The notes beneath the pieces are model-generated. The model did not search any database and was not told the origin of the DNA. It saw only the letters and a list, made by a program, of their open reading frames with translations. Shown in pieces: positions 604-5,317 of a DNA stretch of 5,317 bases. The stretch is from the IMG/VR virus record IMGVR_UViG_2541047680_000003; one strand, 5' to 3'. Numbering within the stretch: position 1 is the first letter of the stretch; each line of letters starts with the position of its first letter. Origin of the DNA: a virus. Taxonomy: Duplodnaviria; Heunggongvirae; Uroviricota; Caudoviricetes. A program made the translations under genes and the position numbers.

Positions 604-876
604 ATGGGAATGGTGCAAGAGTGCCTCGTTTTGATTGAAGGGTATGATCCGTATGTTGTTAACGTCAGTAGAATGGATACTGGCTATAGCGACTACAAAA
701 CTGGTCGTGAACTGCCGTTCACCATCATCAGGATGAATAGCTTTGGCGATGATGATGCTGTTTATTGCTGTATAGCCAGCGATAAAAACATGGAAGACCG
801 GACAGATGAAGCCCGTATGCTATTGAGGAAATATAAGGTAAAGCCGTTATCAGAGAATAACGCTGAGAGGGGTTAA
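604..876 (+). CDS. Hypothetical protein (90 aa from ATG 604; ORF track gives TTG 580)
   Basis: ATG 604 is preceded by GAGGA (592..596) at 7-nt spacing. The start follows the TAG of the upstream ORF closely, an operon-like arrangement. No recognisable motifs. Confidence 0.55.
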   Translation: MGMVQECLVLIEGYDPYVVNVSRMDTGYSDYKTGRELPFTIIRMNSFGDDDAVYCCIASDKNMEDRTDEARMLLRKYKVKPLSENNAERG

Positions 877-878
877 AA

Positions 879-1274
879 ATGGCAGTTCAATCATACAAAT
901 ACGAATCCCCTTTGGATAAGGGATACATTCGTATCAAGTTAAGTCGTTCTCAGCATAAGGCTATTTTTAAGGTAAGGAAAATTCGCATATTGGATGCGTA
1001 TGCGTATTACTACAACGGTGAAAATGTTGTTGTTGAACACTTTCTTGCACGATGGTTTGTAGCTCTGATTTTTGTCCCTCTCCTGTTAATTGGTACTTTT
1101 GTGGATGGTTTTCCTAGTACATGGCGGGAGATAAAGAAAGGCTTATTCCCGCGTAAGTACGGCAGATTTTCGCAAGATAGCTGGCGAGTTATACCGGGTA
1201 AACATTCTGTGGATGAGCAACCGATTGTTGATTACTGGTTGAAGCGTATGGCTGATGCTAAAAAAGTTGATTGA
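879..1274 (+). CDS. Hypothetical small membrane protein (131 aa) with one predicted transmembrane helix
   Basis: ATG 879 is preceded by GAGAGGGG (865..872) and lies 2 nt after the upstream stop. There is a hydrophobic stretch WFVALIFVPLLLIGTFV at about residues 59..75, with basic residues on the N-terminal side. Confidence 0.6.
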   Translation: MAVQSYKYESPLDKGYIRIKLSRSQHKAIFKVRKIRILDAYAYYYNGENVVVEHFLARWFVALIFVPLLLIGTFVDGFPSTWREIKKGLFPRKYGRFSQDSWRVIPGKHSVDEQPIVDYWLKRMADAKKVD

Positions 1275-1292
1275 GTTGTGGAAGGAGTATTT

Positions 1293-1517
1293 ATGAACTG
1301 TAACAAAAATGAAGAAACTCGCCTGGTTTGGACGGTAGTAATCGGAGATAAAAAGGGCGGTGAAGAGCCTCATTTTGATTATTCTGTGGCTTTGCAGGCT
1401 CTCATCCTTGAAGCGCAGAGATACCAACAAGAGATGCAGAAGAACCCTCAACTGGAACCTCGACCAATTGGCCTATTCTGCGAGCGAGTATCAGCGGCTG
1501 AACTCCCTGATATCTGA
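1293..1517 (+). CDS. Hypothetical protein (74 aa from ATG 1293; ORF track gives GTG 1278)
   Basis: Strong RBS AAGGAG (1282..1287) 5 nt before ATG 1293. Last gene of the small-ORF cluster, followed by palindromes and a promoter. Confidence 0.55.
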   Translation: MNCNKNEETRLVWTVVIGDKKGGEEPHFDYSVALQALILEAQRYQQEMQKNPQLEPRPIGLFCERVSAAELPDI

Positions 1518-1530
1518 TGCCCTCCAACAG

Positions 1531-1549
1531 CTGATCAGGTTCTGATCAG
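1531..1549. promoter_or_regulatory. Tandem palindromic 8-mers CTGATCAG-GTT-CTGATCAG (each containing a GATC site); possible protein-binding site
   Basis: Seen directly: CTGATCAG at 1531..1538 and 1542..1549, 11 bp centre to centre; a third CTGAT at 1514..1518. Function is inferred. Confidence 0.3.
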
Positions 1550-1578
1550 TTAGTAAAGCAAACTATAAAAACACCTGT

Positions 1579-1598
1579 CCCCGTGACTGGTCACGGGG
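1579..1598. promoter_or_regulatory. Perfect 9-bp/2-nt/9-bp palindrome CCCCGTGAC-TG-GTCACGGGG: operator-like site or terminator stem for the upstream operon
   Basis: Seen directly. It lies about 20 bp upstream of the -35 of the immunity-leader promoter and about 60 bp after the stop of the 74-aa ORF. It is followed by TAAAATGTCTTTT, which is not a clean U-tract. Confidence 0.35.
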
Positions 1599-1618
1599 TA
1601 AAATGTCTTTTCAAATTA

Positions 1619-1648
1619 TTGACGTGTGCGTCGTTTTGACGGTAAAGT
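1619..1648 (+). promoter_or_regulatory. Sigma70-like promoter of the immunity leader (TTGACG -35 at 1619..1624, TAAAGT -10 at 1643..1648, 18-nt spacer)
   Basis: Hexamer match by eye. A second TTGACG at 1636..1641 has no good -10. No transcription start site data. Confidence 0.4.
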
Positions 1649-1680
1649 TACTACGCTGCGGTAAATCCCGCAGCCGGGAC

Positions 1681-1704
1681 TCTCAACCCCGAAATCCGAA
1701 CGAC
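1681..1704 (+). promoter_or_regulatory. Upstream antisense target boxes (seqA / a1-b1 analogue): TCTCAAC 1681..1687 and CCGAACGAC 1696..1704
   Basis: 1681..1687 is complementary to the single-stranded GUUGAGA of the ncRNA (1814..1820). 1696..1704 is complementary, with one G-U pair, to the 9-nt loop 1799..1807. The order and spacing fit antiparallel pairing. Confidence 0.5.
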
Positions 1705-1708
1705 GCAC

Positions 1709-1731
1709 AACACGCGCCAGCGTGTTTTTTT
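1709..1731 (+). terminator. Rho-independent terminator / attenuator in the immunity leader
   Basis: Stem AACACGC (1709..1715) and GCGTGTT (1720..1726), loop GCCA, with a run of seven T at 1725..1731. It sits between the upstream target boxes and the structured RNA. Confidence 0.65.
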
Positions 1732-1762
1732 GTGTGTATAAGCCTGCGCATATCCGAATTAT

Positions 1763-1838
1763 GGTAGCTCAGGCGGGGCAGCCGAAAGGCTGGCCGGTGT
1801 CGTTTGGGCCGGTGTTGAGAACCCCGCTTGGGCTACCA
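1763..1838 (+). ncRNA. Structured antisense immunity RNA of the P1 C4 / P4 CI / N15 CA type (tRNA-like; probably excised from the leader transcript)
   Basis: A 16-bp closing helix (1763..1778 with 1822..1837, two G-U pairs) encloses a GAAA-tetraloop hairpin (1779..1792) and a second hairpin (1793..1813, 9-nt loop), plus an 8-nt single strand GUUGAGAA (1814..1821). ACCA follows the helix at 1835..1838. The loop and single strand are complementary to boxes both upstream and downstream. No long ORF in 1518..1897. Confidence 0.6.
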
Positions 1839-1849
1839 CCCTATAGAGA

Positions 1850-1889
1850 TTCTCAACTCTGGTGGTAGCACTGTTCTTCCAAACAAGAG
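1850..1889 (+). promoter_or_regulatory. Downstream antisense target boxes (seqC / a2-b2 analogue) abutting the RBS of the first operon gene
   Basis: TTCTCAAC (1850..1857) is a perfect 8-nt complement of ncRNA 1814..1821. CCAAAC (1879..1884) is complementary to loop 1802..1807 and sits immediately before the AAGAG Shine-Dalgarno at 1885..1889. Confidence 0.5.
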
Positions 1890-1897
1890 TGCATACC

Positions 1898-2062
1898 ATG
1901 TTCAAATTCAAATTTGCGGCAGTCGTTCGCACAGACAAAAAGTCACACATCCATCATCTTTCCACTATCGCGTCATCTGAACGGGAAGCTCGTCGCCAGT
2001 TCGCCAGCCGGTTTGTCCTGGTATTGTCTGCCCGTATTCCGGTGCGCGAGGTGGCTGCATGA
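1898..2062 (+). CDS. Small protein (54 aa), first gene of the antirepressor operon; Icd-like by position only
   Basis: ATG 1898 with AAGAG RBS 8 nt upstream. The ORF track shows a longer 1862..2062 form, but that start would lie inside the RNA target region. The stop overlaps the next start as ATGA (2059..2062). Confidence 0.5.
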   Translation: MFKFKFAAVVRTDKKSHIHHLSTIASSEREARRQFASRFVLVLSARIPVREVAA

Positions 2063-2292
2063 ATCAGGTAAAAATGAACACTGTTGGCCTGCTGGAGTCG
2101 TTGGATGAACGTCTGGCTCAGGTCTATGCGCTCGTGTCATCAGCCCATCGGACAGTATCCAGCTGTGAGGCGTCGATTTATCTATCAGAAGCCGGGAAGC
2201 TCCTTCAAATTGCGTGTGAGCTAACACACGAAGCACAGGGGTATTCAGCATCTCTCTCGTCGCAATTGCAGCACAATAAGGAGGCCAAATGA
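2059..2292 (+). CDS. Hypothetical protein (77 aa), middle gene of the antirepressor operon (AntA-like by position)
   Basis: ATG 2059 overlaps the upstream stop (ATGA), with GAGG at about 2048..2051. Its own stop overlaps the next start (ATGA at 2289..2292). Confidence 0.6.
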   Translation: MNQVKMNTVGLLESLDERLAQVYALVSSAHRTVSSCEASIYLSEAGKLLQIACELTHEAQGYSASLSSQLQHNKEAK

Positions 2293-3071
2293 GCGCGTTA
2301 GCTGTATTTTCGTTTCAGGAAGAGCATCAGGTTCGTGTAGTGATGATTGATAGCGATCCGTGGTTTGTAGCGGCTGATGTTTGTAATGCCATCGGGATTA
2401 TCAATCATCGTGATGCTGTTGGTAAGTTGGATGAAGACGAAAAGGGGGTCGGTTCAACAGACACCCTTGGAGGTAAACAGGGAGTGACAATTATCAACGA
2501 ATCCGGCCTCTATACCCTAATCCTCCGCTGCCGTGATGCGGTGAAGCAAGGCACAACAGCTTGGCGGTTTCGCAAATGGGTAACGAACGAAGTCTTGCCC
2601 TCTATTCGCAAAAATGGAGAGTACGTTTACATCGAGCCTGAGCCAATGCGAGCAGCGGAGCCGTTGAACTGGAGGCAGAAAGAGTATCTGCGAGGGCTGA
2701 TTAACGATATAGCACAAAGTTTTCAATACCGAAATGCCTGGATTAGTGGTGTATGGTTGGCTTTGCGTCGGGCGTGTCGTAATCCATCCCCGAACCCCAT
2801 AACGGTTGATGATTTGCCAGCAATTACGGCAGAACTGCGCCGGATTTTGACGGCTGCTGAGTCGGCATTGGGGAACATGCGCACGTATGAACGAGAGTTG
2901 TTGCGTGATGTTGTTCGTGGGGGTAGGCGGAGTATGTCGTGTGGTGATTTACCCATCACCGATATTAACTCTGATCTGGAAAAGGCGTTACCCGCGCATT
3001 TTGAACTGGCAGTTCAAAAACTTGAGCAGTTATCCGCGCAGCTAAAGCCAGCAGAAATCACCAATAAATAG
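2289..3071 (+). CDS. ant: Phage antirepressor with an N-terminal Bro-N-type domain (260 aa)
   Basis: The N-terminal 110 residues (FSFQEEHQVRVVMIDSDPWFVAADVCNAIG ... ESGLYTLILRCRDAVKQGTTAWRFRKWVTNEVLPSIRKNGEY) fit the Bro-N / antirepressor N-terminal domain pattern as I remember it. Strong RBS AAGGAGG (2278..2284). Translationally coupled to the upstream gene. Confidence 0.8.
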   Translation: MSALAVFSFQEEHQVRVVMIDSDPWFVAADVCNAIGIINHRDAVGKLDEDEKGVGSTDTLGGKQGVTIINESGLYTLILRCRDAVKQGTTAWRFRKWVTNEVLPSIRKNGEYVYIEPEPMRAAEPLNWRQKEYLRGLINDIAQSFQYRNAWISGVWLALRRACRNPSPNPITVDDLPAITAELRRILTAAESALGNMRTYERELLRDVVRGGRRSMSCGDLPITDINSDLEKALPAHFELAVQKLEQLSAQLKPAEITNK

Positions 3072-3207
3072 GGTTGACCAGCCCGAATTTATGCCCTTCT
3101 TAGAGAAGGGAAGCCTCGCAGTCGGGGCGGTGATGTCTGTGGTTGCAGCCGCGTTTCCTCCGTTACTTCTGCCCTTTGCAGGGGGCAGGCGAGGTAGGTC
3201 ACACAAC

Positions 3208-3231
3208 AAGGCACCGTTAATTCGGTGCCTT
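3208..3231. terminator. Hairpin between the convergent ant operon and telN; candidate bidirectional terminator
   Basis: Stem AAGGCACCG (3208..3216) and CGGTGCCTT (3223..3231), loop TTAATT. Flanking T-rich or G/T-rich sequence on both strands is only moderate. It lies 12 nt from the telN stop. Confidence 0.5.
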
Positions 3232-3242
3232 TACTGTATGCT

Positions 3243-5126
3243 TTAACCGAAATATGTCAGCCATGCTAACTGCATTGCTGACATGGGGCTGTTTGCACTG
3301 CCGGACCACGCATAATTCTGGCCATTATAATGAAACTCGACAACGTATGAGCCATCACCAATATTTCTCACTGGCTTAAATACCGGCTTAGATACAGGCG
3401 AAGAAGGTGCAGGCGGTTGCTGTTCTTCTACGCTCTCTTCCTCTATCTCAATTTCGTCGTCATCCAGATCGTCATCCTCTGATAATTCATCCGCCAGTTC
3501 AGGTATTGCTTCCAGTTCTTCTTCGTCAGGCATAACGATTTCTGGAGTATCTATTTTCAGTTGCCATTGTCCGTTTTCGCCAACAAATTGCCCCAGAGCA
3601 TCAGCAGCAAATTCCAGGTATCGACTAATCATTGTTGGGCTAAATTTGAACGCTCTTAGAGTGCTGTTCGTGATTTTTATAGAGGGGTCCTGCTCTACCA
3701 GCTGCTTAACTGTGTTATGCAGACGAACCCCGGCATCTCCTCTGGCGAATCCAGGCATTTCGTCATCAAGCTGCTGCAATGCTTCCAGCCTGGTATTTTC
3801 GTTTCCAGTATTTGGCCTCCATGTCTTTGAGAAGTTGGCCAGCTTGAATTGCTTATAGTGTAATTGAGTGTTTTCATCGTCATGGCCTAAGATTTCCATA
3901 AAGAAAACATCCTCATCTACGTTTTTCCAACGAGGATCTACGCGGAAAAACATTTCATACGCAATACGGGCATAAATAGCACGACTATCTTTATAAACAC
4001 GGCGGTTATCTTTGAAAAATGATTTAACCCACGGGTTAAAAGCCTTTGCTAATATGGCATTAATACGTCCGTTTTCAGAGCGTGTGTCGTTATCTCCATA
4101 ACCTTTAACGACATCATCAAAATCAGATGCTGCTGGGCATGAGCGAAGTACATTTATTAAATAAACAAATGTTTTTGCTTCGCATAATGTATATATTTTT
4201 CTGGTTATATCATCAGAAGTTCTTTTTTTAGCTTGGCCTAAAAAATCAACGGTATACTTACCAGAAACAGTAAATGTACCTTGATACATAATCTCAATCA
4301 TTCGTCTTCCTGACAATGCAGCAAGTGCAAATGCCAAAGGAGCCATACCTGAACGAGTGTTTAGATTATTTAATGTAGCAGGGCTATTTATAATATCGTA
4401 AATAGCTTGCATATATTTAGGGTAATCAATGACCACCACGTTACGTTTCTTATTGTGCAGAACGTCCGCCCATCGTTGCTGGATAGATGCGCGTTCGGCA
4501 GGGCTTAGTTGAAGATGATAGAGAATCTCATGGTTAACTTTTAGCTGATTCAACTCCTCAAGCAAGGCAGATCCTTGCTGTAGTAATTTATATAAATAAT
4601 CGCGCTTATCTTTCCAGTTATCGCTAGTTAAATCAGAAATGGCGAATTGCCACTCTTTATATTTATTTGATAATTTTAATAACTTATTATGGCTTTTGTT
4701 ATCACCAATTCTGATATTAGATAAATCTTCTGATAAAGGGAGAATTAATTTTAATTTTGCCTGTAAAGCTGACATTCTCTGGCGAATATCGGCAGCAGGT
4801 AGAGAAAGCCATGACAATAGCTCCTCATTATATAAAGGATACTTTTCAGATAGGCGATGTATATTTTTTTCAAAGCTATGATGAAGTTTATCATCAAACC
4901 GTTTTCTGGCCCTGCTCATATATGCATTGAATGTGTTGGCTGTAATTCTTTTTTCTAATCCTTTCCCCCTAAACTTTCGCTTGTCATTAAATAATGCATT
5001 TTTAAATTTTAATGCAACAGCCTTTATTTTTTTTGTTTTTTCCCCTTGAGGACGGTCAGAGTTATCTATTGACTCAACATCGCTAACAAGTGAGTTTATT
5101 AATTCACCGATTTTTACTTTGCTCAT
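3243..5126 (-). CDS. telN: Protelomerase (telomere resolvase), TelN/TelK family, 627 aa
   Basis: Length and overall sequence match my recollection of N15 TelN (631 aa). Tyr424 in QLHYKQF coincides with the published TelN catalytic Tyr424 (TelK Tyr425). RR at 274..275 and K300 are in tyrosine-recombinase-like positions. An acidic D/E linker (residues about 533..570) precedes a small C-terminal domain. Strong RBS (GGAGAGG on the minus strand) before ATG. The gene is adjacent to a half telomere palindrome. Confidence 0.93.
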   Translation of the reverse strand: MSKVKIGELINSLVSDVESIDNSDRPQGEKTKKIKAVALKFKNALFNDKRKFRGKGLEKRITANTFNAYMSRARKRFDDKLHHSFEKNIHRLSEKYPLYNEELLSWLSLPAADIRQRMSALQAKLKLILPLSEDLSNIRIGDNKSHNKLLKLSNKYKEWQFAISDLTSDNWKDKRDYLYKLLQQGSALLEELNQLKVNHEILYHLQLSPAERASIQQRWADVLHNKKRNVVVIDYPKYMQAIYDIINSPATLNNLNTRSGMAPLAFALAALSGRRMIEIMYQGTFTVSGKYTVDFLGQAKKRTSDDITRKIYTLCEAKTFVYLINVLRSCPAASDFDDVVKGYGDNDTRSENGRINAILAKAFNPWVKSFFKDNRRVYKDSRAIYARIAYEMFFRVDPRWKNVDEDVFFMEILGHDDENTQLHYKQFKLANFSKTWRPNTGNENTRLEALQQLDDEMPGFARGDAGVRLHNTVKQLVEQDPSIKITNSTLRAFKFSPTMISRYLEFAADALGQFVGENGQWQLKIDTPEIVMPDEEELEAIPELADELSEDDDLDDDEIEIEEESVEEQQPPAPSSPVSKPVFKPVRNIGDGSYVVEFHYNGQNYAWSGSANSPMSAMQLAWLTYFG

Positions 5127-5249: not shown

Positions 5250-5290
5250 TATCGGAACGTTAAAAATTGTTCCTTGACTTTGTTCTGAAG

Positions 5291-5317
5291 ATCAGCACAT
5301 AATTCCCCATTATACGC
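5291..5317. other. Half of the telomere resolution palindrome (telO/telRL half-site); the window ends at the dyad centre, implying a hairpin telomere
   Basis: ATCAGCACATAATTCCCCATTATACGC differs at only about three positions from the left half of N15 telRL as I recall it (TATCAGCACACAATTGCCCATTATACGC|GCG...). The last bases CCATTATACGC equal the left half of the 22-bp telO palindrome. Confidence 0.8.

Follow-up and report, generated by a model that had tools for sequence, protein, structure and literature searches.

The 5,317-nt stretch of viral DNA analysed here (IMG/VR record IMGVR_UViG_2541047680_000003, hereafter the window) carries three small open reading frames, ORF1, ORF2 and ORF3, directly downstream of the 3' end of the replication gene repA. 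These are probably three independent and dispensable accessory genes. The element is an N15-like (Ravinvirus) linear phage-plasmid, and the genes fill a cargo slot in the distal part of its repA operon. Much less confidence attaches to any specific activity of their products; a host-directed role, exerted in the case of ORF2 at the membrane, is plausible. Escherichia phage YDC107_1 (Ravinvirus, N15-like) matches the window from end to end at 96.9% identity, and PhiR46_1 shares 93.5% identity with it over 73% of the window length. The order of elements on the + strand comprises the repA 3' end, ORF1-ORF2-ORF3, an isrK-like leader, a C4 RNA, and the icd-like, antA-like and Bro-N/antB genes. The counterpart of repA is annotated as an origin-binding protein/RepA in YDC107_1, N15 and phiKO2.

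The three genes and the slot they occupy

A preliminary description of the window had reported ORFs of 90, 131 and 74 aa, tightly packed and each provided with its own ribosome-binding site, and all three were found on the + strand where it had placed them. The repA stop is separated from ORF1 by 11 nt, ORF1 from ORF2 by 2 nt and ORF2 from ORF3 by 18 nt. Direct reading of the sequence revealed a purine-rich Shine-Dalgarno sequence 5-7 nt upstream of each start. The features of this region are as follows:

2-592, + strand: 3' end of repA, coding for the C-terminal 196 aa (phrog_4913, 'replication', E 3.8e-47)
591-596, + strand: Shine-Dalgarno sequence of ORF1, AGAGGA, 7 nt ahead of the ATG at 604
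604-876, + strand: ORF1, 90 aa, acidic (isoelectric point, pI, 4.7)
864-871, + strand: Shine-Dalgarno sequence of ORF2, GAGAGGGG
864-1280, + strand: ORF2 cassette (Shine-Dalgarno sequence, gene and stop), 99% identical to PhiR46_1 with unrelated flanks
879-1274, + strand: ORF2, 131 aa, basic (pI 9.8)
1050-1106, + strand: part of ORF2 coding for its hydrophobic helix (residues 58-76), a membrane anchor predicted from hydropathy and the structural model
1280-1287, + strand: Shine-Dalgarno sequence of ORF3, GGAAGGAG, 5 nt ahead of the ATG at 1293
1293-1517, + strand: ORF3, 74 aa, acidic (pI 4.8)
1567-1610, + strand: inverted repeat CCCCGTGAC..GTCACGGGG, directly 3' of ORF3, with 21-nt arms that are 76% complementary
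1619-1648, + strand: promoter-like site TTGACG-18-TAAAGT, 5' of the isrK-like leader and C4 RNA

The comparison of ORF1 with N15 gave proportions of non-synonymous (pN) and synonymous (pS) differences of 0.17 and 0.85, respectively. The ratio of non-synonymous to synonymous substitution rates (dN/dS) was 0.07-0.27 for ORF2 against close homologues and 0.08 against a Citrobacter homologue, and 0.08 for ORF3 against phiKO2. In these comparisons synonymous sites are close to saturated while non-synonymous change is low, so that codon-level constraint is clear; no homology to routine structural or replication proteins was found. Shine-Dalgarno sequences at the proper spacing, together with purifying selection, therefore mark all three as real genes rather than chance ORFs.

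Pattern scans detected neither a promoter-like site nor a convincing + strand terminator in 604-1517, where the sole terminator-like candidate on this strand is a weak 5-bp stem at 612-625. The repeat at 1567-1610 is likely to be either the end of the repA operon (a terminator) or an operator, and the promoter-like site marks the beginning of the next unit, immA. Because no internal promoter or strong terminator was detected, and positions 1567-1648 further downstream contain a hairpin and a promoter-like site, the cluster is best read from these scans as the distal part of the repA operon, forming one unit with repA.

Although no family had been recognised earlier for the three ORFs, all of them match PHROG families of unknown function (E 1e-52 to 1e-91). 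ORF1 aligns to phrog_18790 (E 4.6e-55, profile positions 1-82 of 82), shares 76% identity over 82 aa with N15 gp36 (E 1e-46) and 68% with phiKO2 Gp34, and is their orthologue. It is the first gene 3' of repA here, a place held by its family in 12 of 18 N15-like loci, and its model contains five beta-strands and a C-terminal helix, predicted with low confidence (AlphaFold2 predicted local distance difference test, pLDDT, 55). ORF3 aligns to phrog_21657 (E 1.2e-52, positions 1-74 of 74) and, with 73% identity (E 9e-38), is the orthologue of phiKO2 Gp31. Both families are narrow. They comprise 7 clusters each in 5.8 billion proteins, the source names given for these clusters are all enterobacterial, and related loci were found in N15-like contexts only; no relatives of ORF1 or ORF3 appeared in scans of species-representative genomes. 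The word-indexed homologue searches returned 7 clusters for each of the three ORFs, all unnamed and, where a source was given, enterobacterial. Searches of Pfam, NCBIfam and PADLOC (Pfam and PADLOC at E<=1) gave no match for any of the three. PDB-sequence profile searches yielded nothing under E 0.02, the best match being a designed transmembrane hairpin aligned to the ORF2 helix. In the literature, no functional study of N15 gp33-36, DUF5448 or PhiR46_1 was found.

The position of the cluster had been interpreted as an accessory slot, and this is borne out by a mosaic gene content with fast turnover across N15-like elements. The interval from repA to the C4 RNA measures 1.05-2.66 kb in 18 N15-like loci and contains about a dozen conserved + strand ORF families in varying combinations (raw clustering gave 29 groups, which include overlapping alternative-frame ORFs). 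The gene next to repA is gp36-like or else codes for a 63-aa hydrophobic protein, and the second is usually gp35-like, the gp35 family matching the phiKO2 DUF5448 protein at an hhalign probability of 92%. Further along the slot come gp34, gp33 (which has a single hydrophobic helix), ORF2, ORF3, a 95-aa protein with a signal peptide, and lipoproteins (138 or 270 aa). NAR688 and one IMG/VR contig (locus L013) have the TelA telocin and the ImmA immunity protein in this place. The 95-aa protein of PhiR46_1 (locus positions 4544-4831), which has a signal-peptide-like N-terminus, is annotated as 'Spackle exclusion protein'; no supporting Pfam match was obtained at E<0.05, and the annotation looks unsupported. 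This protein occupies the position of ORF3 in the window, where other relatives carry the 138- or 270-aa lipoprotein-like genes.

The borders of similarity within the window coincide with this mosaic structure. Positions 2-813 (repA end and ORF1) are collinear with N15 and phiKO2 at 66% identity. The 864-1280 block, besides its match to PhiR46_1, is 89-98% identical to E. coli and E. fergusonii plasmids, again with unrelated flanks. From 1306-1308 on, a block that runs from ORF3 into immA and extends to 3037 is collinear with phiKO2-type loci, and similarity to N15 picks up again at 1522. The GC content of ORF2 (40%, and 37% at third codon positions) is the lowest of the three ORFs and below that of neighbouring genes. 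Among PLSDB records, ORF2 was found in 50, ORF1 in 21 and ORF3 in 34; ORF1 and ORF3 occur together in 13, and ORF2 occurs with either of them in none. The complete trio is absent from all 5,426 complete E. coli genomes, 17 of which carry the ORF2 cassette; in 15 of these the block ends as in the window, and the other two matches are truncated. Breakpoints at gene boundaries and the lack of co-occurrence of ORF2 with the other two genes in PLSDB therefore indicate independent modules. The ORF2 cassette appears to be exchanged as a separate unit, ORF1 appears to travel with the repA 3' end and ORF3 with the downstream anti-repressor locus. The trio is thus a rare recombinant of independently moving cassettes and not a functional unit.

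Moreover, the genes have been lost in close relatives. E. albertii pEA26_5 (NZ_CP117614.1) is 98% identical to the window up to position 676 and the match resumes at 1248, which corresponds to a clean 571-nt deletion (677-1247; 2956-2960 in its own locus) at an ATGG microhomology. The deletion joins codons 1-24 of ORF1 in frame with codons 125-131 of ORF2 (...VSRM/ADAKKVD, then the stop); pEA26_5 is a naturally occurring knock-out of both genes that arose from an ancestor of the window type. In E. coli pEC12401-3, which has neither ORF1 nor ORF2, ORF3 lies directly 3' of the repA stop, and in pS142-3 ORF2 is reduced to a 52-nt scar of its 5' end. A 96%-identical ORF1 variant (P0008) is present on 24 contigs of the Shigella sonnei type. 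In the three that were aligned (L044-L046), which share 98% identity with the window, the match breaks at about 1121-1123, just past the hydrophobic helix of ORF2. Contig L044 spans the break and contains an IS200/IS605 insertion sequence (IS) element in ORF2, with a 408-aa TnpB on the - strand and a 134-aa Y1 TnpA, which leaves an 81-aa shortened ORF2 product. The insertion was seen directly in L044, whereas L045 and L046 break at the same point and the other 21 of the 24 contigs are reported as similar places. Such losses in close relatives suggest that the genes are dispensable accessory genes. N15 replication has been described as requiring RepA and TelN (PMC2847241), and taken together with the losses this argues against a core role in replication or maintenance, as does the finding that the trio is a rare and repeatedly lost recombinant. 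None of the three ORFs therefore appears, from the gene content of these elements, to be required for replication, telomere resolution or maintenance.

ORF2: a widespread family of predicted membrane proteins

ORF2 differs from its two neighbours in the breadth of its family. Its match to phrog_15458 spans the whole protein (E 8.9e-92, positions 1-131 of 131), and at E<=1e-3 an exhaustive hidden Markov model search found at least 164 representative clusters. Most relatives are 110-130 aa long and align to positions 5-101; all 98 aligned relatives match phrog_15458, and no member of the family matches a meaningful Pfam family. Residues Y8, G15, H26, G77 and G95 are near-invariant (0.91-0.98 in 98 sequences), in the context of a KKYGSFSSD-like motif, and all five are present in ORF2.

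The single hydrophobic helix noticed earlier in the 131-aa protein is confirmed by a Kyte-Doolittle mean of 2.27 over the 19 residues 60-78. Across the family the hydrophobic segment has a median value of 2.09, and it exceeds 1.6 in 93% of members; a proline inside the helix is kept in 80% and a glycine directly after it in 93%. The net charge flanking the helix is +5 on the N-terminal side and +2 on the C-terminal side. An AlphaFold2 model built from the family alignment is confident (pLDDT 95.4; predicted template modelling score, pTM, 0.83) and contains strands 17-19, 39-45, 49-56 and 98-103 and helices 58-76, 78-89 and 111-130; no structural neighbour was found for it in the PDB. As 98-103 is the only strand following the hydrophobic helix, it must pair with the N-terminal strands, and the model accordingly places both halves of the protein on the same side of the membrane. 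Some members, such as P0159 and P0031, bear Cys-rich, zinc-ribbon-like C-terminal extensions (CxxC...CPxC). These tails imply a cytoplasmic C-terminus and are perhaps a nucleic-acid- or protein-binding add-on. Owing to the strand pairing in the model, the charge distribution and these tails, a cytoplasmic-face protein with a monotopic or re-entrant anchor is favoured over a simple single-pass protein. A 357-aa match (P0163) was considered as an informative domain fusion and rejected as a low-complexity repeat.

Homologues of ORF2 occur in very different surroundings. They were found in N15-like slots of Escherichia, Klebsiella, Enterobacter, Citrobacter and Yersinia, directly after the DNA polymerase gene of Proteus phage Isfahan, and between the terminase and portal genes of Salmonella phage CF-SP1. 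T4-like contigs have them within arrays of small ORFs, adjoining T4_Y16D and on a contig with Gp23. Such varied contexts point to a moron-like, position-independent cassette, and not to a component of a replication module. One of the T4-like metagenomic contigs, L020, with its Gp23 major capsid gene from 6214, codes two genes 3' of the ORF2 homologue for a 632-aa hybrid sensor kinase (PAS-HisKA-HATPase_c-Response_reg; kinase locus 3198-5096), and a two-component protein borne by a phage is unusual. Homology of ORF2 to the N15 gp33/phiKO2 Gp32 family was also considered and rejected, at an hhalign probability of 2.3% with the hydrophobic helix alone aligned. None of the surveyed loci and none of the 60 listed PLSDB records has both families together, and they may be functional analogues at most.

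Taken together, a working scheme can be proposed. ORF1-ORF3 would most likely be translated from the repA transcript, each through its own ribosome-binding site, and their products may be present at a low level in the plasmid-prophage state and at a higher level upon induction or infection. ORF2 is predicted to be a small basic protein in which a beta-sheet domain is combined with one strongly hydrophobic, proline-containing helix with positive flanks on both sides, and the protein would be held by its monotopic or re-entrant anchor at the cytoplasmic face of the inner membrane. As a best guess, it may act there on a host membrane process, for example to exclude superinfecting phages or to take over the host; the products of ORF1 and ORF3, both small and acidic, may bind host or phage proteins. 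Pfam, PADLOC, PDB-sequence and structure searches gave no homology or fold match to superinfection exclusion, anti-defence or host takeover proteins. The 'gp35' reported in the NAR688 lysogen proteome was considered as a sign of slot-gene expression and rejected, as it is a RelE/ParE toxin in the numbering of that paper.

Competing explanations

A more far-reaching interpretation sees in the ORF2 family monotopic phage proteins of the inner membrane that represent a new fold class and share one activity directed at the host; they might, for instance, block the entry of DNA or disable a membrane-bound defence or host factor. ORF1 and/or ORF3 would in this interpretation be undescribed anti-defence inhibitors specific to telomere phages. 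Its part concerning ORF2 draws on the confident model that has no PDB neighbour, the lack of a Pfam family, the conserved Tyr/His/Gly set and the distribution over temperate and T4-like phages. This interpretation is possible, although rather unlikely.

ORF1 and/or ORF3 could also be anti-defence proteins in a narrower sense, that is, small and acidic proteins, produced soon after entry, that inhibit host restriction or another form of immunity. Anti-defence genes are typically small, acidic, early and narrowly distributed, and located in variable slots. ORF1 and ORF3 share this profile, being small and acidic (a property that is not diagnostic), lying in an early operon, and being limited to N15-like elements, where they occupy a variable slot. 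However, many small phage proteins of unrelated function are acidic as well, the ORF1 model is of low confidence, and general sequence and structure searches matched no known inhibitor, while no search aimed at anti-defence families was made. This explanation is distinctly unlikely.

The three ORFs might, on the other hand, be auxiliary replication or plasmid-maintenance factors working with RepA, for example with ORF1 as its partner or with ORF2 tethering the replicating linear DNA to the membrane in the manner of phi29 p16.7/p1. They share the operon and orientation of repA and start 11 nt downstream of it; ORF1 comes first after repA in 12 of the 18 loci, and in N15 and phiKO2 a single unbroken block of DNA comprises it and the 3' end of repA; the ORF2 homologue of phage Isfahan directly follows a DNA polymerase gene; and ORF2 itself is basic with a predicted membrane anchor. 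The presence/absence data nevertheless speak against this. PhiR46-type and NAR688-type elements have another first gene in place of ORF1, pEC12401-3 does without ORF1 and ORF2, pEA26_5 has most of both deleted, and ORF2 is interrupted by an IS in the Shigella type. In addition, the CF-SP1 homologue lies between terminase and portal, and the requirement described for N15 replication is for RepA and TelN (PMC2847241). A replication role is therefore improbable.

It is still less probable that ORF3 regulates the neighbouring anti-repressor (immA) operon and is not cargo. In every surveyed locus that has it, no other conserved gene lies between ORF3 and the C4 RNA region; the two form one inherited DNA block in phiKO2-type loci (1306-3037), and ORF3 is the sole slot gene kept in pEC12401-3. 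However, N15, PhiR46-type elements and NAR688 have isrK, C4, icd, antA and antB without ORF3, the distance from ORF3 to immA includes a hairpin and a distinct promoter-like site, and no DNA- or RNA-binding family was matched.

Finally, the suggestion of a toxin-immunity or toxin-antitoxin module like telocin/ImmA, formed by the whole cluster or by ORF2 and one neighbour and with ORF2 as its membrane immunity or addiction component, is very improbable: the RepA-to-protelomerase interval does hold TelA/ImmA in NAR688 and L013, the genes are tightly packed and ORF2 is predicted to be membrane-associated, but no ORF has a colicin or pore-forming domain or any Pfam or PADLOC match, ImmA has four transmembrane helices against the one hydrophobic helix of ORF2, the absence of PLSDB co-occurrence of ORF2 with ORF1 or ORF3 shows that their partnership is not obligate, natural losses affect ORF2 and its neighbours singly, and ORF2 homologues stand alone in unrelated phages. 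Each of the latter four explanations thus has some positional support, which is weakened by presence/absence data or by the lack of defining components.

Neighbouring loci and comparison with known systems

The cluster had been placed between the replication region and an immunity module. The first of these neighbours is indeed the replication region, whereas the downstream module is the anti-immunity (immA) locus, with an isrK-like leader, C4 antisense RNA, icd, antA and antB, and not the primary immunity region. The further features on this side of the window are:

1642-1695, + strand: match to the c4 a1/b1 target model, sub-threshold (28.3 bits vs 46.7), overlapping the isrK-like leader
1655-1730, + strand: isrK-like leader (Rfam, 56.9 bits, above gathering)
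1709-1726, + strand: terminator ending the isrK-like leader
1757-1843, + strand: C4 antisense RNA (Rfam, 74.4 bits), 5' of icd/antA/antB
3243-5126, - strand: protelomerase gene telN

The anti-immunity control region at 1642-1843 is complete, and old N15 records give the ORF at 1862-2062 the name 'cA secondary immunity repressor'. PhiR46-type elements lack the equivalent of window positions 2447-3182, so that antB (Bro-N) is reduced to a 54-aa remnant (window compared with L002, L026 and L028), and pEA26_5 and pS142-3 carry transposase genes where antB would be. The anti-repressor operon therefore also appears to be eroding in some lineages.

The interval between the convergent genes antB and telN contains a short hairpin rich in GC, GGCACCGTTAATTCGGTGCC, with Ts behind it (3205-3235), at the position where phiKO2 annotates a bidirectional terminator. 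The last letters of the window, ...CCATTATACGC, fall inside the telL site annotated at the physical end of the PhiR46_1 record, and positions 5290-5317 end in ...GATCAGCACATAATTCCCCATTATACGC. In our reading of this sequence, the end of the window is the centre of the telomere palindrome, 5290-5317 is half of the telRL palindrome, and base 5317 would be the hairpin telomere (telL) of the linear plasmid prophage. The YDC107_1 record (CP025712.1, locus 8330-11330) mirrors itself past the point that matches the window end, with the protelomerase gene (split into three coding sequences) and the BRO-N gene repeated on opposite strands. This mirror image looks like assembly read-through of a hairpin telomere, and the same artefact may explain several PLSDB 'plasmids' of 60-90 kb in which two places match.

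The closest known counterparts of the cluster are N15 genes 33-36 and phiKO2 genes 31-34, which resemble it in slot, orientation and operon position and for none of which a function has been described. The window lacks homologues of gp35 (DUF5448-related), gp34 and gp33 and carries the ORF2 cassette instead, whereas N15 has neither ORF2 nor ORF3. The DUF5448 (PF17526; P22 Eaf-like)/N15 gp35 family is a slot neighbour of the ORF3 family. The central strand-helix region of gp35 bears a weak local resemblance to ORF3 (27% over 48 aa; against the gp35 family, hhalign probability 16.7%, E 1.5e-3, 49 columns), and the relationship is unproven; ORF3 is about 35 residues shorter and has no Pfam match at E<=1. 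Within phrog_15458, ORF2 has the motifs and the central hydrophobic helix common to its members, whereas its subgroup from N15-like elements possesses an extra conserved C-terminal helix (about residues 104-131) that most relatives lack.

Superinfection exclusion proteins such as T4 Imm, HK97 gp15 and P22 SieA are small, non-essential and membrane-associated, and they are encoded in early or lysogenic units of lytic and temperate phages. The likeness of ORF2 to T4 Imm/Sp, HK97 gp15 and P22 SieA is a functional analogy only, as no homology in sequence or fold was found. These proteins are bitopic or polytopic, whereas ORF2 is predicted to be monotopic with both ends in the cytoplasm.

Public records already list the products of all three genes as 'hypothetical proteins', and each belongs to a known family of unknown function. 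The cluster is ordinary cargo of a phage-plasmid, a part of the phage 'dark matter', and the ORF2 family is its only part of wider, though modest, interest. ORF2 is nevertheless the most useful lead, as a large family present in many phages, with no Pfam entry and with a confident predicted fold that has no solved relative. Its natural knock-outs, the Shigella-type IS insertion and the E. albertii deletion, can be compared with intact elements, and its function, once defined, would annotate more than 160 known clusters of related phage proteins together.

The Klebsiella telomere phages provide the comparison for the slot as a whole. In these phages, the interval between RepA and protelomerase, which is also the location of the three ORFs of the window, contains a telocin/immunity cassette (TelA/ImmA) that is regarded as cargo of benefit to the lysogen, with ImmA as an inner-membrane protein of four transmembrane helices (PMC12042878). 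The three ORFs include no pore-forming bacteriocin gene, as judged from the lack of any Pfam match, and the 377-aa reverse-strand TelA-like ORF of NAR688 has no counterpart in 593-1640. NAR688 TelA is encoded on the opposite strand, whereas the three ORFs are co-oriented with repA and share no sequence similarity with the cassette. Since bacteriocins are carried there in Klebsiella telomere phages, the RepA-to-protelomerase slot is a good hunting ground for genes of lysogen benefit and host interference.

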